Assembly (NCBI GenBank): GCA_044892525.1 | Contig: CM097887.1 | Coordinates: 10,912,001 to 10,976,000 of the forward strand | DNA: 64,000 nucleotides | Reading direction: 5' to 3' | From: Schmidtea polychroa | Taxonomy: Eukaryota | In this document: one piece after another, positions 10,907 to 64,000 of the stretch | How the letters are laid out: every line of letters starts with the position of its first letter | How positions within the stretch are numbered: position 1 is the first letter of the stretch | Translations under genes and position numbers: made by a program | Notes under the pieces: model-generated | Told to the model about the DNA's origin: nothing | What the model saw: only the letters and a program-made list of their open reading frames with translations | Databases searched by the model: none

Positions 10907-11051
10907 TAATAATTCAATAAGATATATTTTTCAAAAAAACACTAAAACGAATATTATTCAAACAAAACTTTACATAACTTTTACAAAAGGAGTTTCAAAA
11001 AATCCTTTTTAAATAGAAAAGAAATCAGAGGTGAAAATGAAAAGAAGTTCT

Positions 11052-42126: not shown

Positions 42127-44647
42127 TTATATTGACAAATTATCGATCGGAACGAGGCAGAGCATCTCCTTATCGGACCCAGCAACAATCAATGATTCAC
42201 TGACATCGAGCGCTGTCACCGTGGAGGTCTGGTTACCGATTACGCTCTTCATTTGCAGCGATGACAAGCTCGAGTTGAAATCCCCCCAGTCAAACCCGAC
42301 ATCTGTACCGGAAATATTGATTAATCCTCCACAAGAGGAGGCAATGAAGAGATTTTGTGGATTTGTCGGATGGAATTTCACTTTCCAAACGTCGCTGGCC
42401 TCGAGGCCTGTGTTCAGCTGGACGGGGCCGCTCCTGTCAGTGCTGCGCAAATCCCAGATGCAAACGCATCCGTTACAGCCACTGGCAATTATATTCGGCT
42501 GTCCTGGATGCCGGGAGAGGCTGTGGATGCTCGTTAATTCACTGCCGTACCTAATTTGGATTCACGTTATTTGGTATTTATTAATAATCAATAAATAAAT
42601 ATAAAAAATTATGCGTCAATATATTAATATTTATTTGAAATTGCATCGATAAATTTATATATTTAAAATAAATAAAATTAAAAAAATATTTTAAAATAAT
42701 TTATTATAATTAAATGTAAATTAATATATTTAAAATAATTAAATTTAATAATCAACATATTTTTATTGTAAATTAATATAATTGCATCGATATTATCAAT
42801 TAATATATTTAATATTATGAATCAATAAATTTTAATTGAAAATTAATCAATAAATATATTTAAAATAATTAAAATTATATTTAAATTTATTAATTATTAA
42901 ATTGTTATTGTAAATTAATATATTTAGAATTGCATCGATTAATTTATATATTTAAATTAATCAATTACAAATAAAATTTATTCAATATATTTTAATTGTA
43001 AATTAATATAATTGCATCGATAAATTAATTTAAATATTATCAATTAATATATTTAATATTATGAATCAATAAATTTTAATTGAAAATTAATCAATAAATA
43101 TATTTAAAATAAATAAATTTAAAATATTTAAATTTATTAATTAATAAATTGTTATTGTAAATTAATATAGTTAAAATAAATAAAATTAATTCAATTTTAT
43201 TCAATATATTTAAATTGTAAATTAATATAATTGCATCGATAAATTAATTTAAATATTATCAATTAAAATATTTTTTATTATGAATCAATAAATTTTAATT
43301 GAAAATTAATCAATAAATATATTTAAAAAAATTAAAATATTTAAATTTATTATTAATAAATTGTTATTGTAAATTAATATATTTAGAATTGCATCGATAA
43401 ATTAATTTAAATATTATCAATTTAAAATAAATAAAATTAATTCAATTTTATTCAATATATTTAAAATGTAAATTAATATAATTGCATCGATAAATTAATT
43501 TAAATTTTATCAATTAATATATTTAAAATAATTAAAATTAAAATATTTAAATCGATAAAGAAAACCGATAACCCTTACATTACCACTGAATCACTGGCCT
43601 GATACTGTTATATAAAATATTATAATATAAATTTGTTAAAGGGGCCCCCTGGTTATCTTTGGCCCCCCCCCTTATAATATATGAATATTGCATATAAATA
43701 ATATAAAAAGGGCATTCAATCAATGGAGGAATCTCACAAATATTGAAAGGAAATATAATAATAACCCTAGTGGAGCAATTAAGCCCCTTTGTTACCCTTC
43801 CCCCCCTTTGTTATCATTGATAATATTGACCAATCAAATATAATATTAACAAGCAAAATAGATAATGAAAGAGTAGAAATACAAATTCATATAAATGTTA
43901 CATTATTGCAAATTAATTATTAATTAATTAATTAAATTTAAATAAATCATGAAAAAGTAATCTCACCTCAAATAACTCCACTGGGGCGTTTTGATACGCA
44001 TTCTATTATCCCATAATTTCACTTGGCCGAATGCATTTGCCGTCAGGAATGTGTGGCGATCAATTCTTTCAATTGCGTTGATTGCAGTAGCATCTTGCAC
44101 GCGGAAATCAAAAACTGCATTAGGGTCATTAACTTCTAGGCGATTAAATGCAAATTAATTAATTAATCAATTAGATATTGATTTAATACTTTTATCTAAT
44201 CTAATTGACAGCATAGTACCATCTGTTGATACGGCAATAATTCTCTCATCGGCAAACAATGAACCTGTTATTGGTCCAGAGCATACTTTATCCCAACCGA
44301 CATCTAATTCTAATTTCCCACCGTCGTCTGAATTAACATTATAAATGTTTAAGGAGCCATTAGAGCTTGATGTTAAAATTCGATCGTGAATTTGATTGAA
44401 CTGTATATCCATGACATCACCATCATGGGCAATTGTTGATAAACAAATTGGTTCAGTAATATCACCACCGTATTCCATTATAGATATTGAGTTTGCCTTA
44501 AAAACAATTGTTAAAAATCAAATTAAGATACTGTATTACTGGTTCGAAGCATGTTCCAACTGCAAAATATGCTTCTGTATCTAGAGGTTCAGATATGAAT
44601 TTGATACAAGAAATTTGCGAACAAAATGGTTTGAAAGTTAATTCCAT
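42127..44647 (-). CDS. NUP43: Nucleoporin Nup43 (WD40), 335 aa; exons 44647-44540, 44496-44190, 44135-43967, 42550-42127
   Basis: HDGDVMDIQF, TANAFGQVKLWD, SRHPGQPNIIASG, VWKVKFHPTNPQNLF, TALDV...LIVAGSD match Nup43; GT-AG introns of 43, 54 and 1416 bp keep the frame (1008 nt). Confidence 0.9.
42600..43560. repeat. AT-rich imperfect tandem repeat in NUP43 intron 3
   Basis: Recurring aattgcatcgataaattaatttaaatattatcaatt blocks. Confidence 0.8.
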
Positions 44648-45134
44648 AATTATAATTATTAAATAATAAGTTTTTGAAAGTGATATTTAAATGTAAGATA
44701 TTTAAACAAACTAAATCTTTAAATTGTAAAGTTAAAGAATAAACCAAAAATATTATATTTTGTTGAATTTTTATTTAATAATACATTAATATTTCGAATA
44801 AATGTTATGTTAAAAAATATGTAACTTAATATCTTACAGATAAATGATTGAAATATTAAGTTAAATTATCAGCTCAAATTCAGGAATTAAATTGATAATT
44901 AGTTGTCACTTAAATAGTAAATAAGCAGAACAAAAACAAAATAAGTACAAACAATAAATAAAATTGACGAGACAGCTTTAAAATGCAGAAACTGAAAAGA
45001 GACCAAAGAAAGTACTACGGTTGCCAACTCCTTTTCACTTTTTTGGTTTACACATGTTAGTGATTTTAACTATATGATAACTAATACCATAAAGATTTAA
45101 ACATGTTGAGGTTCGTAAATTAAAATAAATTTAA

Positions 45135-45212: not shown

Positions 45213-45567
45213 TAAACCGATTAAAACCGGCCTTATAATTTATGAATAATTATTGGATGTGGCTATTTATACATACTTATTTTTATTATTATTATATAGT
45301 CAGAGTTTATCGGACAAGATATTCTGTCACTCTATGGGTACTGCTCGTAAGGGTAATAGTAGCAAAGGTACTGCTAAAAATATTCAAGGCAAAACTTTAA
45401 CAAAGAAATTCTCAATATTATACTTTAAATATACACTCAAACTAAAATTTATTAACACATTCACATTTGTCATCTCCGCATTTCATATCATTTTCAACAA
45501 CATGATACAGTAAGTATAAAAAGCCAACATGATACAGTAAGTATAAATAGCCAACATGATACAGTAA

Positions 45568-48500
45568 TGTTGGGCTGAGTCGAAAATTTAATCGTTGAAA
45601 AATAGGAAAGTAGGGAAGTAGAACATTAAGAAAAATAATAATAAAATAAATAAAATCAGAAATAAAATAGAATAAGATATAAGGAAAATAATAAGTAAGA
45701 CATAAGAATTAAAACAAAAAATAAAATTAAGAAAAGATTAAAATAGAACAAGTTGACAAATAAATAAAGAGGAATTCAAGAAATAATAAGGAAATTAAGG
45801 AAATAAATAGAAAAACATATTAAAAATAAAGAAAATAAGGAAAAAACAACCTAAAAACAAGAAAATTATATTAAATTAATAGAAATAAGCGGTACTCAAC
45901 TCTGATTGGTCCGCACAAATAAGAATTTGATATATATACAACTACCAAAAACATTAAATTTACTGTTAACCCCGAGCATTTCATAGGTAAGAAAAATGTT
46001 TACTGTTGTTTACGGTTAACCCCGAGCATTTCATAGACATCTACAACTCACGGAGACTTATTTCAAGGATCAGCAATACAAGTAGAGCAACAGTTAATTC
46101 GAAAAACTTCACAGCAATTCGAAATCAGTCACAGCAATCGACATTCAACGAACCATCATCAGACTAATTTGGAACGACTAACGTTAATTTTCCGATTCAG
46201 CCTAATTCCATAGTAAGGGATTTTTATTTATGATATTGTTTTTCGAAGTTAATAGTAAATATGTATATTTAATGAGCAATTAAACTTTTAAATTTAACCA
46301 GACTCTCTTTTCATTTGGTCCTGAATAACGATTTTGATAAAGTAAATAATTTAAATGTTTAAAAGTATTTATTGGTAACAGGTGAACTCTTACATAATTT
46401 TTATGGATATTTATTTTGAAGTGATAGTTTCATGATTTCTAATATTAACGAGAAACGTGGCGTTGAGATACTCCATGTCATGGTGTGAGGTGCCTTCGGG
46501 AGCTCAGCCGGTGGACATGGAGTATTTCAATCACGCAGCTAGATTGGGCCGAAATGTGAAGGCTTCTTCACGGGTCCAATTGCTGAAGGACTTAAAATCT
46601 GTCAGAGTACCGAAATATAGACCGAAAGGAAACCTTCTGAAAGTTTCGAAAATAGGATATGTGCTTCACAGCGACTGAGGGAGTTCTCATATTAACTCTG
46701 TATTGTCCAGAGTCGTCTTACAAGACATTCATGCCACTTCTGTCTATAAATCCGAACTTACCATGTGGGGGAAAATACCATTAAACATCCATCGCTGGTT
46801 TTCTAACATATCGAGAAGTTGAAATTGCATTCGGTAGATTTTTGAAAAAGTAACTCTAATTTAGGTCATCTCTTTCAGATGCGACATCCAAATCTTAGCA
46901 TATGATGAGGAATTTACAATAAAGGAAAAGTAAAACATAAAACCACAATAATACTGTATTCAATCACATATATTAACAAAATCTGGTAATACCCATTGAA
47001 TAATTTTCATGCTGTTGCGTCGAAATATCCACTACTGAAATATGCTTCATAGAGTCTAGTTGGCTGGTTCGTAGAGATCTCCCATCGTTCAAAAGCATCC
47101 AATATTGAGGAAATTACGAGTCGTAGTAAATAAATCCGACATCATAAGCTCAGATGGGAATCGACACGCGATGTAACATTTGCAGTTCGCTCAGTACGGT
47201 TGATAGTTACAGATAAAATTTCCATCGAATAGGCACCCATACATACAGACATACTGCTAACATAACTATGAGTAGCGTCATCCGGTCAGAAATATGCATG
47301 AGAAACAGCAGAATCATTCCGAGTGCCTCTCACCGCAGGGAATGCCGCCATGTGTCACCCTCTCTAGGATTCTTAGTGTGTGAGTAGTAATCAGTGGTCC
47401 TATTAGATAATGCTGACATGAGATGTGACTTCCAGATGACTGACTCTTAAATTTCACTACTGATAAAGGCCATTCGTACCACTAAAAAGATAAGCCAAAT
47501 AACCAGTAACCGACTACTAAGATAAGGGACTCTCTAAAGTGCACCCATTAAAGATAATTTTGCTTAAATTAAATATGCTAAATAAAAATCGAAATTGTTG
47601 AAGGGGTATTTTAATTAATAATCGAAAATTCAAACCAAACTTTATAACTAAACCATAGGAAGTTTTACCTAAGTGTTGTAGAGGTTTATCGTAATTCTAA
47701 TTAGATGTTACAAATAATAGTAGTAGCCTTCGAGCCAAATTTAAATTAACTAAAGTATCTACAGGAATTTTTGGGTTATAAAATAGCTAGTAATATTGTA
47801 GTTAAATTTCTCATATTCCCTGTAAATGACGTATTGTAATAGAAAACTAAATCCGATAACAAATTATTATGTAATTACAATATTTTTACGATGCTATATT
47901 TCTACGACGATATCACCGTATGGTATGGATAAGGGGTAATCATAAAATAGTGACGTATAGTTTATACGAAATTACGAGTTGTTACTTATTCCGCTACTTG
48001 AGGTAAGGGTGCAAGTTTTTACTAGTTGCATTTGGTCCAAAAACCTTATTTTGCATTAGAATAACAACAAATAATCAGCGAAATTTAAACGAAGTGTAGT
48101 ATAGTGTATTTGTAATGAAATAGGGTTATTCGCTCCGGCATGAATAAATCCGTAAATTGCCTTTATGTGCGATAGATAGAAATCCAACTCGAACGCGATA
48201 GACGAAAATTAAAATTTTTACAAATAATTTGCATTCGTCAGGGAAGCAATCAGGGCGTTGGGGAATAATTTTCTGTAAAGGATACGTAAAATATTAGTAA
48301 TCAAGGGTGAAGGGAGGGATCCTGTTTCATCGACTCGTCTTGTTTTCTTCCAGCACTAAGTATCCAATAGCGAATAAACCGTATATCTGATCCGAAATTT
48401 TTGGATATAGTCATCATAGTTTTCTTCTTTAGCCATCCATATGTTATCAAACCACAAATCAGCTCTACGTCCCTGCTTCTCCTGCTCAGATAAAAATGCA

Positions 48501-49727
48501 GTGATTAAAGATCTTCAAGCCCAGATCGGTCGATATAAACGAAAAATCGACGAACTGGAAGGGACATGGTTTAGTCCCGCTCGGATGAAGGAGATCCAAA
48601 AGAAGCTCGATCGTAGCGAGCATTGCCGGGACGCGCTAATATCTGAGAGCCGTGCCCAAAGAAGTCTAATCAGAGAACAATCCGAGGCACTGCATAAGGT
48701 TTACGTGCAGGCGGCTACAACCCGAAAAATAGTGCAGATTCCCATCCGAGAGGCCGATGACATCTTTCCGCCTCATCACAACCTTTCCTCGAATCCATCT
48801 CCACCGTTCAAGAGACCGTGCCAAGACTGCGTCGAAAACGAATTGTCCCCCAAGCGACCAGATGTTGTCGTCACGGGTACCAGTAAGCCCCCCACTGCTA
48901 GTCCATCTGTATCAGTCACCCCTCTGCAAGTGGCATCTTCAAGCAAACCCAAGCGCAAACAACTCTCTCGTGCAGAGCGCAAGAAGAGACAGCGCGAACG
49001 CGCCACTACCAAGCCAAACATCCCATCAATAGAGGACTCAACCAACGGTGGCAACTCTCACGTGTCCATCGACCTAACAACGGGACCCTCAGCACGAATC
49101 ATATCAGCCGCTGGCGTAACGTGGGAAGAGAACGCTTCCGAGTTTTTTAACCTCGACGAATTATTCGCCGACGCTGAATGGGAGAAACAATAGAACCCCA
49201 GTGGCGGTCAGGACGAAGAACAAGGATCCGATCTATGTTGATTATGATGTTTTCTCTTCTTTCGACAAACATTAGTAAAGTGTACAGCTGAATCCTTGTG
49301 TCATAACGTTGAAATTAATAAATCTTGTTGTCTTACACGTTTTCGTTCATGAATAATTAGACTTTAATTAAGTGGGTTGAGTAGAGAACCCGCCAGATCT
49401 AGTGAGAAATTCCCAATTTGTATTCAGCGAATCCTGATAAGTGGTTGTGTAAGGAAAAGGACGTAAGCCCTTCTAACGGCAGTCGTGAATGGGAAGTCGA
49501 GGCCTCAGCAAGGAGTAGTTTTAAGGCAGAAGCTCACCTGCTTGCTGGCGTCTCGCCTGCATAGTGCAGTACCAACGTGAAGTGATTCACGGGCACTATG
49601 TTGGAAGAAAGTTATGTGGGGTTTCACTCCAGGTTGACAAATCGGTGGCACCTTTTATTCGAGATGGACAATCAACCCTTAGACCCGTCAACATGGTAGA
49701 GTGGTCAGCCGAGGTGTAACCCCAACA
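45568..49727 (+). repeat. Candidate 5' LTR, 4160 bp
   Basis: Starts TGTTGGG and ends CCCAACA (perfect 7-bp inverted termini, TG..CA); PBS 7 nt downstream; AATAAA at 49317-49322; partner LTR not in window. Confidence 0.7.
48441..49193 (+). CDS. LTR-encoded protein of unknown function (250 aa; CxxC, coiled coil, basic patch, acidic/aromatic tail)
   Basis: Intact ORF with higher GC than its flanks; preceded by TTTCTTCTTTAG (48421-48432), followed by AATAAA. Confidence 0.65.
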   Translation: MLSNHKSALRPCFSCSDKNAVIKDLQAQIGRYKRKIDELEGTWFSPARMKEIQKKLDRSEHCRDALISESRAQRSLIREQSEALHKVYVQAATTRKIVQIPIREADDIFPPHHNLSSNPSPPFKRPCQDCVENELSPKRPDVVVTGTSKPPTASPSVSVTPLQVASSSKPKRKQLSRAERKKRQRERATTKPNIPSIEDSTNGGNSHVSIDLTTGPSARIISAAGVTWEENASEFFNLDELFADAEWEKQ

Positions 49728-49734
49728 TGATTTT

Positions 49735-49752
49735 TGGGGGCTCAGCCGGGAT
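49735..49752 (+). promoter_or_regulatory. Primer-binding site, tRNA-Pro
   Basis: TGGGGGCTCAGCCGGGAT, 16/18 to the classical tRNA-Pro PBS TGGGGGCTCGTCCGGGAT. Confidence 0.85.
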
Positions 49753-50065
49753 CTACAATCGATCGAAATTTCTATTAACGAATGCGAAATTCACCGGGAT
49801 TTTCATAAAAAATTAAAGGGATTTATCACATCGATTTTCTGTTTTCGACCGACCATTGCTTGACGAATGCCAATTAACTATTGATTATTAAATTATATTA
49901 GGAACTAAGTAGAGAAAATCAAAATGTAGATAATAGAAAAATTAAGGATATAAATAAAGGAGATAAAGTAGTCAAATTAAATAATTAACAATGGTTAAAG
50001 AAACCAATTAACGAATTAACTATTAATTTACTACATATTATTAAAACATTACTTTTCCAACAGCT

Positions 50066-50551
50066 ATGACAGAATTCGCGAACCAAATGCAACAACTGCT
50101 CAAGTGGATCGATATAGAAAACGACTCCCTAACAACACTGACGCATAAAAGAGAAAAAATCAACGCGATATTACTGCAAGCAATCGGACAAACACCAGTC
50201 GTACCTAATCATATGATATTAGCCACAGGCCTAAGTCGCCCAGATGGAAAAATAAACCCCGAAACCGTATATCAGTGGTATCAAGAGAGATTGAACCACC
50301 CAACATTAAATCTAGATTATCAGCGTCTAAAAGACTCACTAAATACAATACCAGATGCAATCGAACAAAAAATACAGGAAAAAGTTAACCAATTACGAAC
50401 TTGTATAGCCTGCAAACTCCGTCCTATTCGCGTATTATTCTTGCCGTGTGGACACCTCAGTCACTGTGAAGAGTGTGTAAAAGACCTAAAAAGATGCACG
50501 ATGTGCAAATATGAAATAAAAGAGACCCATATGGTCTATTATGGCGAATGA
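50066..50551 (+). CDS. RING-finger protein (IAP/MDM-type C3HC4_3 RING at the C-terminus), 161 aa
   Basis: CIACKLRPIRVLFLPCGHLSHCEECVKDLKRCTMCKYEI; acceptor-like TTTTCCAACAG just before the ATG; AATAAA at 50656-50661. Confidence 0.85.
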   Translation: MTEFANQMQQLLKWIDIENDSLTTLTHKREKINAILLQAIGQTPVVPNHMILATGLSRPDGKINPETVYQWYQERLNHPTLNLDYQRLKDSLNTIPDAIEQKIQEKVNQLRTCIACKLRPIRVLFLPCGHLSHCEECVKDLKRCTMCKYEIKETHMVYYGE

Positions 50552-51129
50552 AACGGCCGGCGATGTAACAGCAAGTATACGATGTTTGAACAAGAATGCA
50601 TGAAATTGTTGAGGTAACACGTACTGTTAATGATTCAATCTTTATGTTTATGATAAATAAATTCGTCTTTAAAAAGTTTTGATGATTAGGACTAATAAAA
50701 TTTGCATGACGAATGAATATTTGCGTGTTTGTTTTGTTTTATTTTTTTTTCGGAATCAAATGAAGAGAGGGTTGAATAACGTGGAATTAGTCCCAATATA
50801 GACTGCAGGGGTACAAACCGAGCCACCTTCGGGCGGTACGTCTTATTGTAAGAACCCGTTGGGAGGGGATAACTGATCAACCCAAGTAAGAAGCGTAGGG
50901 CGGGGTACCATCGCATATGATGAGAAGTTTTTGCGACATGACTGATCACCATGCAAATGTAGAAATGGATCATCGCGATCGTCGTGCGTTTTGAGCAAGG
51001 GGGGAAAGGGGAAACACTCCCAAGCGGTAAAGATTAAGTCGACAAATTAAAAGTAGATAGAGAAAATGGTAAACTAGAGTAAAAGAAGAAAAGAGAAATA
51101 GAAGCATGCAGAGCGAGGAATATTAAAGC

Positions 51130-51719
51130 CGAGCTGTCGAATAATCCAGCCGGTCAAGGAGGAAGATTGAGCTGTTGAATAGTGCCAGCCAGTCGTAAGG
51201 TCGAGTTGTGAAAAAGTCCAACCGATCAGGAAGGAGGAAGATTGAGCTGTTGAATAGTGCCAGCCAGTCGTAAGGTCGAGTTGTGAAAAAGTCCAACCGA
51301 TCAGGAAGGAGGAAGATTGAGCTGTTGAATAGTGCCAGCCAGTCGTAAGGTCGAGTTGTGAAAAAGTCCAACCGATCAGGAAGGAGGAAGATTGAGCTGT
51401 TGAATAGTGCCAGCCAGTCGTAAGGTCGAGTTGTGAAAAGTCCAACCGATCAGGAAGGAGGAAGATTGAGCTGTTGAATAGTGCCAGCCAGTCGTAAGGT
51501 CGAGTTGTGAAAAGTCCAACCGATCAGGAAGGAGGAAGACTGAGCTGTTGAATAGTGCCAGCCAGTCGTAAGGTCGAGTTGTGAAAAGTCCAACCGATCA
51601 GGAAGGAGGAAGATTGAGCTGTTGAATAGTGCCAGCCAGTCGTAAGATTGAGTTGTTGAATAGTCCAACCGATCAGAAGGAAGAAGATTGAGCTGTTGAA
51701 TAGTGCCAGCCAGTCGTAA
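51130..51719. repeat. 74/75-bp tandem array, 8 copies plus a degenerate lead-in, in the element leader
   Basis: gagctgttgaatagtgccagccagtcgtaa recurs at about 51170, 51245, 51320, 51394, 51468, 51542, 51616 and 51690. Confidence 0.95.
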
Positions 51720-52975
51720 AGGCCTAGAAAAGCGAGAGATAGCAGTTAAGCTACAATGAGATAATATTTAAATTACTAGTGATATGGAATATTAAAGCTA
51801 GCTAGAACAAATTGAATGTAATTTTGAAAATTCGAGTTTAGAGAGGAAATAAACGAGCTCGTGGAAAAGAAAATAGGATTATAATGAAAAAGGAAAGGGA
51901 AGAAGGAAACGAATTAAAGAGATAATAGAAAATAAAGAATAGATGAAACGATGATAATGAGTAAAGAGGAAAGTAACTAACTAACTAAAGGGATCCCAGT
52001 GAAGTAGAGAAACTCTACGGAATATTTTTTTTGGTTAAACCGGGAAAATGCATTTTATTGGTTCCAGAGTAGAACCGAGCGTAATAATAATGAATATGAA
52101 AAGTAAAATAGCGACAACAGCGCAAAAGGATTAGGAAAATGAAAGGGGGGTAATAAGCAGAGACCGACAACGACCTATTTTTACTATAATTGATAACGAA
52201 TAGATAATTATTACGACTTTATAGATAATTGTTACTACCCCATATAGATAATTTAAAATCGACGGAAAATACGGGCTGATGGGATATTATAACCCGCAGA
52301 AAGGATTTCACAAAAGATAGGGGAAGCACAAACAGAAACCTAAAAGGTGTCTGTTTTTGAACGTTGTAGAAAGAATGATGAAGTCGTGTAAGCAAATGCA
52401 ACACGAGATCATTTTTTCATTTTAGATATCAAGCCAATCCAGCCAACCAAGACAATCCAGAACCTGCACAAAAGGAATTCGAAGAAATCGACAATCAACC
52501 AAGGATAAATCCATTCAGAACCCGCACCGAGAGACACAGCAACCGGAAGACTCCCGAACGGAAGAAGTATTAGCAGCCATCTGCCAAGGATTAGAAACAC
52601 AATCAGAACCGAACGCGACCAATTCAATAGCCGCTAATTACCAAGAAGCGTAAGAAAGGAATCACGGATAAACCCAATCTTAGATCTTCAAGTAAGCCAG
52701 GAGACGTATTATTTTCAGGAGACGAATTACAACAACTCAAAAGAGGACGATCCATTAAACATCAAAGAGGAATATCACAAGGATCCAGAAGAACCAATCA
52801 AGTACCCATATTTGACCAAGAAAATCTCGGATATACCCCTAGTCGATCTCGAAGTAGAGAAAGTCTGTCCGATATCACTAATAGTTTAGCAACGTCAACC
52901 GAAGAATTATCAGCCCAAAGTTTAGTCACATCGTTAGACAATTTAAAAGAAACAGACGAACCTAGAACACCAATC

Positions 52976-55900
52976 ATGACGAATGTCGTAAAAACCGACG
53001 AGTATAAAGAGAAGTTCAGAGGAGAACCGTTCAACGGAAATGCAAACAAGCTAGCAACGTTCATAACTAATTTTGAAGTTTATATCACTGTGTGTGGATG
53101 GACACCCGAAGCAATTAGTAAAAGGATGCCGTTGTTTTTGTGCGATAGTGCATTAGAGGTATATTTAGAAGCTAAAGAGAGAGACACGAAATTAGAAAAG
53201 TGGGAAGATATTAAAACATTCCTGAAGAAAACCTTCGGAGCCAGTAAGCCAATCAACCAGGCGTTGGGCGAACTAGCAAATAGGAAACAAAGAGCAAACG
53301 AATCGATAACATTATATGCCAGTGAATTGCGGAGATTAGCGAAGAAAGCAATGAATGGAAAATTACCCGAAGAAAATCTGATCGGTTATTTCATAGAGGG
53401 ATTACGCCGAGAAGAAGTAAGAGCCTCAGTAGGTTGTCAAATGTGCAAAACATTAGAGGAAGCCATAGATTGGGCTACAAGATGCGAGCTCCACCTTCCA
53501 GCTCAAATGAATATTATGCAAGAGGAGGGAAGGATAGCGACAGCAATAGCGAAAGCGGATAACGGAGATAACAACAATCAAGAACCGAAAATGAATCAAT
53601 TTATACCAGGAGCGCACCAAATTTTCAAACCACCACAAGGACGATCAAACGGGAATAATGGTAATCGTAACAACCCGAATAATGAGAACAATTTCAATAA
53701 TCGGCGAAATATGAACGATAACAAGCAGTGCCGAACATGCGGTAAACCAGGACACTGGGACAGAGATTGTTATAGAAATTCAAATTGTAATCGTTGCGGA
53801 CGGCGTGGACATACCGAAAATGTATGCCAATTGCGAGGCTGTTTTAACTGTGGTCAGCCAGGTCACATCTCCAGAGATTGCCGAGAAAGGGGCCAACAAC
53901 AACGACCACCACAGCGAAATAATAATTGTATAGCGAATCCGCAACGACAAAGTAACCCTAACGAAGGAAAACAAATGAACGTTATGCAGGAAATTTCGCA
54001 GATGAAACAGATGATGCAACAAATGATGAGACCAAGACAAGAATCAGCACCACAACAAACCCAGAATATACGTATGATGAGGAGTACCGAAAATCTCAAC
54101 AATTATGAAGTGCATCAACATGTACAAGAATGGCAAAGGCTACAGGCCGAGGAAGAGAGGATAAAACAAGAACGCAACCAACAACGACAAGAACAACCAT
54201 TGCGAATAAATATGATGAAGTTAGTAAAAGACATGAAGAGCCAGTATTGCTACAATTACGGGAAAAGCCCAAGGGTAGTACCCACGACTGAACCAGAAAA
54301 GGTAAAAGAAATAACAACGGAAATGGAAACAGAGAATTCAACCACGATTTTAAAAGGAAACCAGAGAATTCAGAAAATATTCTGGAAAAAGATAAAGGAT
54401 AAAATCGAAAAAGAACATAATAAAGCGAAAACCGAGACAGAAGATGAAAATAACAAGAGCAAGGAACAAACCAGTCAACTAAACCACCAAATGCTACAAG
54501 AATCAGAATCAGAAGAAACAACAATATTCGAAAGAAAGAAACTAAAGAGAGTACCAAGGATGAGAAACTTGCAAATCAATATGATGAAAAGGACAAAAGA
54601 TGTAGCATCGTCAGACGAAGAAGAAGATTATGTAAGTAGTTTGGGTGGAGAAATACTACAGCCGAATGAAATAAGCGAACCCCCAAAAGGGGAAATCAAA
54701 GAGGAAGAAAGCGGAAACGAGATAACCAGTGAAAGTGAAAACGAAGATATCGAAATAAAGTTGAGAAAAGCAAGGGAGGAAGCGATAAAACAGGTAGCCG
54801 AAATACTCCCAGTAGTAGTGAGAAACCAAGAGTTCATCGACGTAATACCATTCAGGCGATTCGTGCAAAAAGTGATGAAATTGGAAAGAAACGAGAAAGA
54901 TCTAATACCAAACGAGGAAAAATCAATTATAAAAAATTATATGGAAAAAATGAAGCAGGCCGATACCACGCGGTATGTAATAAAAATTGGAACGAGTAGA
55001 GGACTTGAAAGAATGTGGATAAAAAATACAGTCACCGACGAACTTTTCGATTGGATACGAGAGCATTTGGGAAGTTCGAGAAAGAAAGAATATCTGTATC
55101 AATACCAAGGAGAACAGATCAAACCAGATATGCACTTAGTAGATGCACTAATATGGCCAGGAGAAACGCAAATACTGAAGTTGCATAAAGAAAAACAACC
55201 AGCCAACCTTTACGATTGGGCTAAAGATGCCAAGGCAGAATATGATTTTAATATCAAATTGAAATTAGAACAAATAAAACAATGTACTCTGAGACGAAAC
55301 CTGGATAAGCTGATCAAACAAATTCAAGAACAAGTAGAAGACAACTGGGATTTACTCATCACCAGACGAGCCCCAGCCATGTACGAACTAATGAGCCGGT
55401 TGCGAGATACAGAAATGCTCCGAATGAGTGATTGGAGAACCATAAATTTGATCCACAAATATGGAAGGTTAAAAGAAACCCAGCCACAGAGGTTAGAAAT
55501 AACCATATGGTTACCGAACGAAGAAAAACGACGAATAAAAATGAGCAATCAGAGTACAGTAGATGACTTGGTATCAAAAATAAACCAAGAGATAACGGAA
55601 AAGGTACGTAGCGAAAGTAGTGATGGTATGGTGGATGATGTAGTCATGATGTACGATAAGATAATATTACGAGCGGAGGACGACACCTCGTTAAGCGAAA
55701 TGGGTATGTGGGACAATCACCAGATAATCAGGATAGTACCAATGGATGAATTTCGAACAAGAGATGTAACCTATCAAAAAGAAATACGAGACCGGATGAA
55801 AACGTTATATCAAAAATCTACGGAAATAATTAAAATCCACCAACAATGGTTAAAAGAAAAAGAACTACAAGGAAAAATCACGAAATTAAGCACCAGATCC

Positions 55901-58900
55901 TGCAGACGAACCCCATGGGAAAGAGTGTGGAATGCAGAAAGTAAGGAATGGGAAATCCGGAAAGGAACCTTCGTGGAAACAGACATTGGTGAGACAGAAA
56001 GTGAATCGGAGGAAGAAGAAGAGGAACCTCCAAAATATGAAGAGGAAGCAAGGGAACAGACATCAGATGACGAAGGCGAGACGGATGTCACATCAGAAAG
56101 CGAAAATGAAGCGAGACATATTCATGCAATGAGGAAAAAGGAACGTGAATATGCTGATATGGACGGCGAGGAAGCGACGGAAGCAAGAGAACGAGAAGAG
56201 AAAGAAAGATATAAACAATTAGGCGATATCTTAGCAATGGGAGCGAAAAATCAAAAACGCCAAGTAGTAGCGTTGGCTAACATCATCTTAAAGACATCAG
56301 AGAATATCCACAATCTGAGAGGAATGGCAAAGGCAATAGAGGAATACCGGCAATATAATGAATGGTATCCAGAACAGCTAGAACAAATTATTCGAAAATG
56401 GAGAAATCAGGAATGGGCACAAGACACCCAGGAGAGGTATCACATCCGAATCAAGTATCCGGACAAGAGCATCGAGGAACTAGAGGTGCATCCAACAACA
56501 AAAATTAGAGAATTAAAAAAGAAATTAGCATATGAAACTCCATTCCATCTGCAACTGTTCGGAAAATCACTAGACGATAATGCAGACGTCGGGATAACAC
56601 CCATGAGATTGGAAGAGACAAATGTATTAACAATGGCAGAAACGTTGGGAAAACCGTTAAAAAGGAAAAGTAAAATTATTAAACCAACAAAAGGCAGTTT
56701 GAGTACTCCAAGTCCGAACAAAGCACCAAGTAAATCTAATGAAACTGAAGAAGTTGAAGAGATAATCCTGGAAGATAGTGACGATGAACCAGGAGAAAGA
56801 TCACCGCTATTAGTGAGATGGCCGACAGGAGCCGAAATGTGGACTAATAACCAGCCATCAACGAGTTATCAACAACCAACGAAACTGAACATCAAAGAAA
56901 TCATCGACAATACTACGGAAACCGAAACGGATGAACAATTCCAGAAGCAAAGAGAACCAACGAAAGTAACACCAGAAAGTCAAACCGACAAAATAATAGA
57001 CGAATGGAATGAGTGGCTAAGAAATAACGATAGCTCATTACCCAGAACGGATAACGAAAGAAATCCGAATTACGAAAATACCAGAGAAGCCGGAACGATG
57101 ATGGAAAAACGGGCAAAAGGAAGACCGAAGAAACAAGGAGAAAAGTCTGAGTTCAAAACCAAAGAACAATTAAAGCAAGAACAAGGGCAAGTTCGATTAG
57201 AAAAATTGGATAAAATAGTATGGGATCTAAAGGAAGCCCAACCAACGATCGAAAGAGGAGAAAAATGGATACGAGAATTGTTAAAAGATATGTTAATAAT
57301 AACAAACCCACAACTTAGACGTTTGTGGCAACGGAAAGTAGCCAGTACGGAAGCTAGACAATTATGGCACACCATTTCGGGGATAATCCCAAAGTTAATC
57401 AAAGAGAAAACGAAAACCACCAAAACGGATTGGGACGAAACAAAGAAAGTGATTGAGCAGCTCACGACAAATGCAAACGATGACGAACATCACCTAGTGG
57501 TAATCACGTATTTGATGTATAATTTGATGGGACTAGCTGCGAGGAAAATACCAAATAAACAATTTGCAAATCATGTGGAAATGACCGTTTCAATCATAGA
57601 GAATACTATTGAACCACATATTATTCGTGCCGGAGGATGGAAAAGACTGATACAAGCGCCACGGAAAAATGAGCAAGAAAGGTCGATGCAAGTTAGATTG
57701 AAAAAACTGTTAAATGAACTAGAATGGGAACTACCGATGAAAGATCCCGCAAGCAGAAAAGCATCAATAAATTCGTTAATGATGACTATGATGATATGGA
57801 TGTTGTGCACAAGTGGAGCAACGGGTTTCACCATCTACGATTGTGATAACATGATAATGAGAGATAAATACTCATTGAGAGACATAGAAGAATGCAGACA
57901 AGCCTCACCCAACAAATTGGACATCGTGAGAACAAAAGTTACTTACCATGTATATCAAGAATCAGACTTCATCAGAACGCAAGCAAGGGAATGCGTAGTA
58001 TCAAAAAAGGTACTCGCATATTACTGTGGACAATATTCGTATTCGACTCTTATACTACCCGGTCTGGATAAAGAAATCGTATCAATACAACGAGAGGATT
58101 GTAAAGAGCTATTTAGAACCGGAGCGCTAAAAATGCATAACGGAGTGACAATTCACGGACAAACTGGAATGATTAAAACCGAAAGTGTTTACGTATCCGG
58201 AAAAGTAAAATCATCAGATGGGTCATGTAACGGGGGGACGTATACGATCCGAGGCGAGGTAATATCGGGAGTTGTAGTGATCGAGTCTTACACGGTCGAA
58301 TTAAAAGAATACGAAGCGCAATTTGACGCAAATAATTACCAAATGAAGACCAACCCAGCGTGTAAAGCTACAGAAAACGTATGCAGGACAGGAGTATCAA
58401 CTATAATCTATGAAGCTAATACCCAAAAATGCCGACTCCAACTGTTAAAAAGTGCTTTGTTCAATGAAGTAAAAGGAGAAATATATGAGAACGAGAACGA
58501 CGAGGATGGAAACGACAGAGTGAGAATGCGAAATGGAAAACCAATGCCACCATCTCCCAGAGAAAAGAGACTTTCAACGCAGAAGACACCAACAGCATTA
58601 ATCACAGACGATCCAGATCTAGGTATGAGATTTATCAAAGAGAAAGAAACCACCAAATGTGACAGTATAGTATATAAAACCAATTACGCAGGTATCTACA
58701 TGTCGAGACAAATAATCGATAGAGCAGTGGGAAAGATAGCAACGGAGGACGTAAAACTATACTTATATGCAAATAATAAAATGGATTTTCTATTTCATCG
58801 TGGACAAACGACCTTGCAAAAAGTATATTACGATCTGATACAAAACGATTGTTCATTGAATAAAGAAATATTGAAAACAAAGCTAGCTATTGCGATAACG

Positions 58901-61900
58901 CACCCCGATAACACGATGCCATCACTCCCATTACCAGATGGACACTTTGGTAGAATGGTAGGAGAAGTGATGTACACATACCAGTGTACCAAGACGTATG
59001 CACGAATGCCAGAAAAATCCATACTACCCGAAAAGAGATGTGCAAATGAATTAGAAATTCGTTATAAAGGACAAAATCGATTCGTCCAACCAGTCACTAG
59101 AATTATGAATCCAGTGGGTTTCTACCCAAATCTCTTTAACTGTTCTAATGCATACGGACCTTTGTATGAAAGACCCGATGGGAAATGGATGATGTTACCG
59201 GGAAAAACCATATCCGAGGAACCCAAGAAATTTGGATTAATAGAACTCGCCACAGAGCTGGATTTCAAACCTATAGACGTGTCAAACGGTGGTATGTATT
59301 CCCCAGAAGATCTAGAAACAGCACGACTTAACGTACTCTTCCCAGCCAGACGAGAATCCATTTTGTCTAATATGGTCACAATAACTGGGGGCACAAACTA
59401 TCAATCAGGCCCGAATTACGAGCTGCTATTATCGCCAGACCATTTTCAACAAGCTACGTCAAACATGATGAAAGCAATGTGGGGAAGATTCTTAGTTTTT
59501 GGACAAATGATGGCCGGGATATTAGGGATCATACTCATAATTCAGATAGTCAGAGTAATACTAACACAAATGTTAGCTTGTTTCGATATATACAAGCGGG
59601 AAAAGAAAGTTAATTGGAAAATGATAGTAGGTTTCTTACCATTTTTAGCTAAGACCATGGTATTACATGGCCACTCAAAAGACATCCATCGGATAAAGCG
59701 ATTGATAAAAATATTAACAAAGATTAAAGGAACCGACGAAGAAGTAGGCAGACGATTCCGGAAAGTAATGTACGATGAAGCAACAAGACGACAATTGAAA
59801 AAGAATAAGCCAAAATTCTTGGACCGATTTAGAAGCCAATCATCTAACAGCGATAGTGACGACGATGATAACGGGAACGATAAATGTCTTTATCCAAACA
59901 GAAACCCAAACGAAAAACCAATGGAAACGGCACCATATTGGGAAAAGGAAAAGACAAACACCTGGATCGCCAATGGAAGCTATATACCACCGGATATCGT
60001 GGGACCACAAACAGCTTTGACCATGACACAAAATATGTATCCGCAATTACCGAGTCAACCCGGTATGCATTATATGCCAACACGACGTACCAAAAGTGTA
60101 GATCAAGCAGATGACGTAAGAACAATAGCAGCGATGAGTTTACCTGGAGGTCCAGCAGTGACAGTCATGATCCAAATCAATGGTAAAGAAACCAATGCTA
60201 TGATAGACACAGGAGCTAATGTATCGGCGATAGCGATTAATCAAATTCCCAGTAAACACTGGAAAGATATCGAATCAACAACAATTCACATCATAGCATG
60301 TAGTAAAGAAACAGTGGACGTGGTCGGAAGATGGTGGACTACATTGAGATACCAGGACAACGAAATTGAAACGTATTTGGCAGTAATACCAAAACTTAGC
60401 GTACCATGCATAATCGGAACGGATTTGATGCCAGAATTGTTAAAAGAAGTCGTAATTGACTTAACAACCATGTGTTTAAAAGACAAAACCGGTAGAATAT
60501 GCAAAATGAATGCAGTCATCAGATGTCCAGAAAAAATAATAGTACCAGCAAAATCGCAGATGATTTGTCAGATAAAAGTGGATACGGGTATGGAAGGAGA
60601 AGTTATCTTTGAACCAAGCAAGTCATTCGAAAAGCGACGAGAATTACCACTCGCAAGAGAAATAATCACAATAAACCAAGAAGGAGTGATACCGCTCAAC
60701 ATCACGAATTTCGAAGAGGAAGACAAAATCATTTATGAGAACGAAAAATTGGGAAGATTGACCCCAATGATGGACATAGAATTACCGAAAGTGACCAACG
60801 AGATGATCAAAGATGATGAATTATGGACAATGGATAGTATGTTGTTGACGAATGATGAAAAGAAAAAATTGCACCGATTGTTGGTAGAATATAAAGATAT
60901 ATTCGCCATCTCAGACTTAGACTTGGGTACATGCGATGTTACCCTACATGCAATACCCCTCATAGATGAAACTCCAATTGCATTAAGACCATACAAGCTA
61001 GCAGAAATGCAAAAAGAAATAGCCGAAGCAGAAGTACAAAAGATGCTAGACGCAAAAGTAATCGAACCAAGTTGCTCACCCTGGCAATTCCCAGTGGTCA
61101 TGGTAAAAAAGAAAGATGGCACCCAACGATTCTGTATCGATTATCGGAAGTTAAACGCAGTGACCAAGAGAGATACCTATCCATTGCCGGACATCAATGA
61201 GATGTTATTGATGTTGCAAGGGGCAGCATATTTTACTTCTCTAGATCTAAAAAGTGGATACTGGCAGATTAAAGTCAAAGATGAGGACAAAGAGAAAACA
61301 GCTTTCACGTTGGGACGAGATCTATATCAATTCAGGAAAATGCCATTTGGACTGACTAACGCACCAGCATCATTTCAACGGTGTATGAACTTTGTCACCC
61401 ATGGAATCAAACAATGTATGGTATATATTGATGATTTACTAATCTATTCAGCGACATTTGAACAACATCTAGAAGATATCCGAAACGTATTTATTAGATT
61501 AAGACAGTGGAAACTCAAACTCAAACCATCAAAATGCGATTGGGCAAAGGAAAAAGTCACGTTTTTAGGACACATAGTGTCAGCTAAAGGAAAGGAGCCA
61601 GATCCAAGAAACATTGAGAAAATAAAAACATGTCCAGCACCGAAAACTGTCACCCAAGTTCAGGAATTTCTAGGATTATGCGGATACTATCGCAAATTTA
61701 TCAAAAATTATGCAGGAATTGCAAAACCAATCCAGGAACTAGTAAAGAAGGACATTTCGTTCTTATGGGGGAAGGAACAACAAGAGGCGTTTGAAACGCT
61801 GAGAGACAAACTAATCGAAGCACCTATCCTCGTACACCCAGATTTTAAGAAGCCATTTCTATTGGCAACGGATGCAAGCGGGTACGCGGCAGGCGCGATT

Positions 61901-64000: not shown

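Follow-up and report, generated by a model that had tools for sequence, protein, structure and literature searches.

What is a single open frame that joins Gag, an envelope glycoprotein, the whole of Pol and modules resembling regulators of apoptosis and ubiquitination: an enveloped retrovirus, or a retroelement that copies itself within the expressing cell and carries its extra domains as passengers? The question is raised by a 64,000-nucleotide stretch of the Schmidtea polychroa genome (GCA_044892525.1, contig CM097887.1, positions 10,912,001 to 10,976,000, forward strand), hereafter the window. An earlier note on this DNA had proposed a giant, intact retroelement, starting at position 45568, in which an envelope glycoprotein precedes Pol. 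The LTRs, target duplication, frame and catalytic motifs described below support a giant Ty3/Gypsy element that is both intact and young, and 45568 is the exact start of the 5′ LTR. The best explanation, which we consider probable as a whole, is an intact, very recently inserted, Burro-type Ty3/Gypsy element in whose single frame Gag and Pol are joined with a predicted gB-like fusogen, and whose replication is likely that of an enveloped endogenous retrovirus.

The element runs beyond the window into a neighbouring genome stretch (L001), whose 2,000 bases of overlap with the window match it without a difference, and its far end lies in L002. Following it to the stop codon and the 3′ LTR, as the earlier note had asked, gave these boundaries:

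45564..45567, plus strand: target-site duplication GTAA, with its second copy directly after the 3′ LTR
45568..49727, plus strand: 5′ LTR of 4,160 bp with TG...CA ends
49735..49752, plus strand: primer-binding site, 7 nt past the LTR, complementary at 18 of 18 positions to the 3′ end of host tRNA-Pro(UGG) plus CCA
51156..51719, plus strand: tandem array in the leader, 7.6 units of 74-75 bp
52976..64000, plus strand: polyprotein ORF, part within the window; its stop is at L001 4829, 2,829 bases past the window
L002 862-5021, outside the window: 3′ LTR, with 0 differences from the 5′ LTR over 4,160 bp

The total length is 30,454 bp, where more than 22 kb had been expected, and the internal region measures 22,134 bp. 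Insertion took place within a 27-bp tandem repeat unit, and the GTAA duplication restores the flanking copy of that unit. The tRNA-Pro primer site and its 7-nt spacer (window 49728-49734) recur in 11 of 12 other copies. Genes for tRNA-Pro stand in long tandem arrays with a period of ~475 bp (L003, L004; G000:C515; C1:130.90-130.95 Mb), with more than 2,200 pattern matches across the genome, and these arrays are a likely supply of the primer. The 61 nt preceding the 3′ LTR, searched for a polypurine tract, contain no long purine run, and the pentamer TGATT is present both directly after the 5′ LTR and directly before the 3′ LTR (L002 857-861). Taken with the 7-nt spacer, these features suggest that end processing may be unusual in this element. 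The LTR also contains a 50-nt GT...AG segment (window 45987-46036), whose 3′ end repeats the bases preceding its donor site, and, shortly before it, a TATATA at 45931, both noted by reading the sequence.

Other genes and elements surround or resemble this locus. On the minus strand, a gene for a WD40 protein (Pfam WD40 E 3e-4), which we take to resemble Nup43, likely has exons at window 43963-44686; the giant element lies ~0.9 kb upstream of this gene, head to head. A second, ordinary Gypsy element occupies window 6540-10930, minus strand, with a gag of 427 codons and an overlapping pol of 1,054 codons, both open, and an RT ~40% identical to that of the giant element. The same genome also houses a smaller sister family (L054-L057; G000:C1:210858979-210878978; C1:6413985-6433984) with the order Gag-Bcl2-Env-Pol-membrane protein in ~3,050 codons and a 722-codon downstream ORF without a Pfam match; its Env is ~80% identical, by eye, to the Smed_errantivirus_3 sequence given in PMC13524379, which by itself already makes a host close to Schmidtea likely.

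The core claim of the earlier note was a single stop-free frame of at least 3675 aa with Gag, Env, the whole of Pol and ankyrin repeats. Translation and Pfam confirm it: the open frame 52631-64000 comprises 3,790 codons with no N and, on machine translation, none of the stops named as evidence against it. From the ATG at 52976 it encodes 3,675 aa within the window, and the whole ORF encodes 4,617 aa; from 45961 up to this start there are 106 ATGs. Pfam gives the domain order Retrotrans_gag, zinc knuckles, weak Bcl-2, Monjiviricetes fusion glycoprotein, protease, RT, RNase H, integrase and ankyrin, which, with the parts assigned by other means, resolves as follows:

53129..53881, plus strand: Gag, with a retrotrans_gag domain (Pfam) and three CCHC zinc knuckles (counted by motif)
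54773..56665, plus strand: three helical-plus-ubiquitin-like units with an acidic linker
57353..57655, plus strand: Bcl-2-like domain (Pfam Bcl-2 E 0.03, below cut-off)
57758..59563, plus strand: predicted internal signal peptide, class III (gB-like) Env ectodomain and TM helix, the helix at 59507-59563
60164..63550, plus strand: Pol, with protease (DTGA), RT (YIDD), RNase H and integrase (H2C2, D-D-E), catalytic motifs present
63845..64000, plus strand: beginning of the first ankyrin-repeat block; this block and a second one run past the window end
L001 ~3828-4829: C-terminal signal-ectodomain-TM membrane protein of the polyprotein

The Pol order PR-RT-RH-IN with intact catalytic motifs, the TG...CA LTRs, the target duplication and the tRNA primer site are those of Ty3/Gypsy elements (Metaviridae). 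A spacer separates protease and RT at the place where Burro has a dUTPase-like segment; the 127 aa of spacer tested gave no Pfam match.

Env matches the Monjiviricetes fusion glycoprotein with a Pfam E of 2e-67, and an exhaustive search of 1.84 billion representatives found 995 relatives. The best of these are other Env-bearing polyproteins (26-46% identity), and public relatives carry Env and Pol in one frame; next come proteins of 600-800 aa with ~20-29% identity, and the three of these that we checked are all stand-alone glycoproteins of the same Pfam family. In word-indexed protein searches, neither Env by itself nor the accessory region gave a match at E 0.001, a result made uninformative by the length limit of these searches. 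A profile of 116 Env sequences, across which the Env cysteines are conserved, matched herpesvirus gB and nothing else in 30 of 30 rows of a PDB search, albeit weakly (best E 0.03). Modelled with AlphaFold, 549 residues of the ectodomain reach a pLDDT of 88, and all 37 Foldseek matches listed for the model are again herpesvirus gB (best E 9e-13, TM ~0.4). Because profile and structure comparisons both point to gB, Env is predicted to be a class III fusogen, preceded by what is likely an internal signal peptide and followed by a TM helix; signal peptides in the polyprotein were placed from hydropathy and alignment only. It thus shares Pfam fusion family and class III fold with the chuvirus-type Monjiviricetes glycoproteins and herpesvirus gB, but whereas the Monjiviricetes-type relatives checked stand alone, this Env is embedded in a retroelement polyprotein. 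Several aspartic-protease domains were seen in the polyproteins of the public relatives P0152, P0003 and P0005, with up to seven such stretches in P0152.

The polyprotein ends in a second membrane protein. A hydrophobic signal, an ectodomain, a TM helix and a Leu-x-Pro motif close it in five of the six lineages with sequence past integrase (the giant element, the sister family, P0003, P0007 and P0152, and not clearly P0016). A profile of motif-selected stretches of this ectodomain matches FN3 proteins, the best single stretch reaching E 0.01 among the alignments listed, a value biased by the motif selection. Its structural model has a pLDDT of 49 and resembles unrelated beta-sandwiches at a Z of 4.4 at best, a fold too poor to classify.

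Around the polyprotein lie further ORFs, two upstream of it, as the earlier note had seen, and five downstream:

48441..49193 (frame given also as 48420-49193), plus strand: 250-aa ORF within the LTR, so present twice; no known family
50066..50551 (frame given also as 50045-50551), plus strand: accessory ORF with a C-terminal IAP-type RING finger and no BIR (Pfam zf-C3HC4_3 E 4e-11)
L001 4963: ORF of 128 codons, no known family, downstream of the polyprotein
L001 5387: complete TRAF with RING, zinc fingers, coiled coil and MATH (TRAF3/2 E 1e-27)
L001 6966 and 8163: two charged ORFs, likely coiled-coil
L001 8980: likely signal-peptide plus TM protein, last of the five downstream ORFs

The likeness of this cargo to apoptosis and ubiquitin regulators, as previously suggested, is supported, in the case of the ubiquitin-like and Bcl-2-like parts by weak or profile matches. 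Of the modules that had been placed in the polyprotein, the ankyrin repeats are there (Ank_2 E 5e-19, in two blocks) and the Bcl-2-like and ubiquitin-like domains are present below Pfam cut-offs, but the IAP-type RING is a separate ORF. Among the ubiquitin-like units, Pfam scores the third as ubiquitin (E 0.004) and the second as PI3K_rbd (E 0.07), both below cut-offs, while the first has no ubiquitin match; one relative adds an E of 0.03, atlas searches gave only leads below 0.9, and the three units share no significant similarity with one another. For the Bcl-2-like region, a single-sequence PDB search returned no Bcl-2 structure, whereas a profile of 10 such domains from these elements, six of them from one sister family, matches BCL-XL over BH1-BH2 (E 4e-4). 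The GGW of BH2 is invariant and the NWGR of BH1 is lost; because BH1 is degenerate, an anti-apoptotic role is uncertain. The RING ORF matches the cIAP2 RING structure (E 4e-11). Neither Pfam nor a zinc-signature scan found a BIR in the element, and Pfam found no MATH in the polyprotein. The TRAF frame appears well kept, with ~130 of 150 scored matches, a hand count and a lower bound, in frames of 478-483 codons.

Two observations adjoin the Bcl-2-like domain. A motif before it (window 57107-57133), which we label AT-hook-like, also occurs upstream of Env in relatives P0005 and P0017 and in the sister family. Elsewhere in the genome (L061-L065), many short Bcl-2-like matches are dispersed in repeated contexts without similarity to the giant element; several contain TAG, and the match in L062 adjoins a 990-codon ORF.

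How much of this was already known? The earlier note had suspected a relative of Burro, and length, ORF1 layout, env position, ankyrin repeats and TRAF cargo bear this out. Novelty is not supported, on a ground that the note itself had named: the architecture has been in print since 2019, along with the provirus and apoptosis/ubiquitin reading, in the part of PMC6431247 devoted to Burro. There, Burro/GYPSM1 elements are described as planarian giant gypsy-like LTR retrotransposons of more than 30 kb, with an internal region of up to 25 kb and an ORF1 of 4,873 or 5,140 aa that holds Gag with 2-3 CCHC knuckles, MATH, Ubi/SUMO-like and BCL2 domains, env in frame between gag and pol, PR-RT-RH-IN, BIR and ankyrin. 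The Burro env is reported to match mononegavirus fusion proteins and is likened to gypsy Env, and the elements are proposed to be integrated proviruses that meddle with apoptosis and ubiquitination (PMC6431247). Set against this description, our element shares the length above 30 kb, an ORF1 of ~5,000 aa, Gag with knuckles, ankyrin, accessory ORFs, tandem repeats, the in-frame position of env between the BCL2-like domain and protease, and, by sub-threshold but consistent scores, a ubiquitin-like region before BCL2. It differs in an ORF1 of 4,617 aa against the published 4,873 and 5,140, in a whole separate downstream TRAF gene where Burro carries MATH within ORF1 or in an ORF upstream, in an upstream IAP-type RING ORF and no BIR where Burro is reported to have a BIR, and in an Env whose model is gB-like rather than gypsy-like (PMC6431247). 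Judged by domain content, it is not Burro1 itself, because it has no BIR and no MATH in ORF1; it is possibly the counterpart of Burro-2, -3 or -4. An RT tree with public relatives is unresolved at its base and does not resolve the relations among families.

A second body of work concerns Env. According to PMC13524379, flatworms, nematodes and bryozoans harbour gB-type GAG-ENV-POL elements; the six from S. mediterranea (Smed_errantivirus_1-6) share gene order, gB-type Env and multicopy intact elements with ours. Like such errantiviruses with HSV/gB-type Env, the giant element has its predicted class III fusogen upstream of Pol, flanked by a signal peptide and a TM helix. Our Env is closest to that of Smed_errantivirus_5 (~54% identity, 102 of 188 positions by hand count) and identical to none of the six. 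The six entries give no LTR or primer tRNA, and the words 'Burro', 'accessory' and 'fibronectin' do not occur in the main text of PMC13524379. Section 7 of PMC6431247, for its part, does not contain the LTR ORF, primer tRNA, C-terminal membrane protein or cassette swapping. In the literature searched we found neither the primer site, the selected ORF within the LTR and the five downstream ORFs including a whole TRAF, nor the second membrane protein common to five of six lineages and the cassette swapping, although the figures or repeat library of Grohme 2018 may already contain some of these, and the family itself. As to effects on the animal, the passages of PMC8532177 on BURRO1 report that its transcripts rise on PIWI knock-down and that the smedwi-2 phenotype is not rescued by BURRO1 RNAi or RT inhibitors, so they lend no support to a large cellular effect; PMC11410931, in its accessible text, has a single mention of Burro.

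The family is young. In a search with the LTR, 40 of 1,243 candidates were scored, and all are 98-100% identical, many of them paired ~26 kb apart. In a search with Env, the best 150 of 1,924 candidates were scored, so that counts of intact copies are lower bounds: for at least 59 of the 150, among them the window copy, the frame measures exactly 4,732 codons from stop to stop, and for at least 64 it has 4,700 codons or more. This answers the call for a count of intact copies, and the 59 loci sit on four long contigs. We estimated selection from 12 copies picked by hand from the best 150 Env matches to span the TRAF identity groups, pooling pN/pS over 10 young copies against the window copy; the comparisons share one reference and hence are not independent, and copies were ranked on 200 Env residues. 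In the core, pooled pN/pS is 0.020 for RT, 0.018 for IN and 0.003-0.027 for Env, where pN is biased low over 200 of 627 residues because the copies came from the 150 best Env matches. The polyprotein cargo gives 0.017-0.062 for the ubiquitin-like units, 0.11 for the Bcl-2-like domain and 0.10-0.12 for ankyrin, with 0.055 for the C-terminal membrane protein and 0.18-0.29 for linkers. Values of 0.11-0.18 were obtained for the RING ORF (0.18), the TRAF RING, MATH (0.18) and the two charged ORFs, and 0.39-0.48 for the last downstream ORF and the TRAF coiled coil. Against an older copy (L036), dN/dS of Env is 0.04-0.05, higher than that of RT (0.005). In the 128-codon ORF, pS exceeds pN in 12 of 12 copies. 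An alignment of the LTR ORF was obtained for 11 of 12 copies, covering no more than half of it in three, and the ORF has no stop in 10 of the 11; in its diverged group, pS is 86% and pN 17%. The data show that core and cargo are under purifying selection, which for Env is comparable to that on RT, and the LTR ORF is under purifying selection as well.

The copies are also mosaic. Eleven young copies are 1-2% apart in RT and 1-3% apart in Env, but form three groups, between which the RING ORF differs by 18-23% and the LTR ORF by 24-35%. The RING ORF of one young group is closer to that of an older subfamily copy (10%) than to that of the window copy (23%); the RING tree joins this group with the older copy (support 100), whereas the RT tree separates two older copies from all young ones (support 97). 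Because these trees conflict, and because cores are near-identical while cassettes are diverged, the simplest reading is that LTR and accessory cassettes recombine around one near-identical core. Positive selection as the source of TRAF divergence among copies is rejected on a pN/pS of 0.18 and a synonymous divergence that rises alongside, which point to recombination.

Could the long frame be an assembly artefact, or its Env serve no virus? Consensus collapse could in principle produce identical 4.2-kb LTRs, but the target duplication restores the flanking repeat unit, the LTRs of other copies differ from those of the window copy, and 59 of the 150 loci have equal frame length, the fetched copies having their own differences. 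The many colinear copies thus exclude a chimeric assembly, and we regard a chimera or collapsed repeat as having a negligible chance of explaining the frame. A more serious alternative is that the element copies itself only within the expressing cell, Env being retained as an ER or vesicle anchor for Gag and Pol or for the sake of an open frame to Pol. Env shares a frame with Gag before it and Pol after it, which fits this, because stops and frameshifts in Env would then be purged whatever its function. So do the access that planarian stem cells give directly to the heritable lineage and the lack of a particle report among the literature matches listed. However, an open frame does not suppress amino-acid change, yet pN/pS of Env (0.003-0.027) is near that of RT and far below that of the linkers (0.18-0.29), and both the conserved cysteines of the 116 Env sequences and the prediction of a whole gB-like fold speak against this reading. 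We therefore consider purely intracellular copying unlikely, and enveloped cell-to-cell spread of the giant element rather likely on these sequence grounds. The earlier note's suggestion of a possibly infectious element thus gains indirect support from selection on Env.

The cargo calls for a similar weighing. If its modules were passengers or structural spacers without effect on host apoptosis or ubiquitin, the parallel with the toolkits of DNA viruses would be a likeness only. The sub-threshold scores of the Bcl-2-like and ubiquitin-like domains, the lost BH1 motif and the variation of cargo between families are what such a reading would predict. It does not account for the RING, TRAF and LTR ORFs, which as separate ORFs need not stay open for Pol and nevertheless are under purifying selection, the TRAF and LTR ORF being open in most copies examined, nor for the strong matches of RING and MATH to cIAP and TRAF2/3 structures. 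This makes inert cargo distinctly improbable in our view, and a real effect on host signalling probable.

How, then, would an enveloped Burro-type element work? In the mechanism we propose, internal signal sequences would thread the polyprotein through the ER membrane in a multi-pass topology, and signal peptidase would cut it so that Gag, the ubiquitin-like units and the Bcl-2-like domain face the cytosol and Env the lumen, with Pol hanging from the Env tail until released by the element's own protease. One frame would yield equal output of Gag, Env and Pol, and enveloped particles would bud, for which the second small membrane protein at the C terminus may serve the fusogen as attachment partner. 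Through its Bcl-2-like, ankyrin, IAP-RING and TRAF modules, the cargo could keep the producing cell alive or damp signalling of the TNF-receptor/NF-κB type, and template switching between co-packaged genomes could leave near-identical cores joined to LTR and accessory cassettes that are deeply diverged. Cell-to-cell transfer has its working model in the Drosophila gypsy/ZAM errantiviruses, Env-bearing Ty3/Gypsy elements with the same 4-bp target duplication. Unlike in the giant element, their env is F-type and follows pol as a separate spliced ORF, and their genome is about a quarter of its size and is not known to carry such cargo. A bolder and rather doubtful extension would see Burro-type elements as active enveloped planarian retroviruses with a two-protein entry machine, in which one polyprotein is cut into a gB-like fusogen and, at its C terminus, an FN3-like attachment protein. 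A single, recently swept Gag-Env-Pol core would then recombine with a swappable pool of LTRs and accessory genes (IAP-RING, whole TRAF, LTR ORF), much like an immune arms race run by a retroelement.

What this locus adds is a fully delimited, very young copy, and numbers behind two ideas left as hypotheses in the Burro section of the 2019 review (PMC6431247): that Env is functional, from selection near RT strength and a predicted full gB-like fold, and that the apoptosis and ubiquitin cargo is maintained, from selection on free-standing ORFs. Should particles be found, planarians would be home to one of the few retroviruses active in invertebrates other than insects, and a retrovirus with a multi-pass membrane polyprotein would be at work in a major model animal for stem cells.
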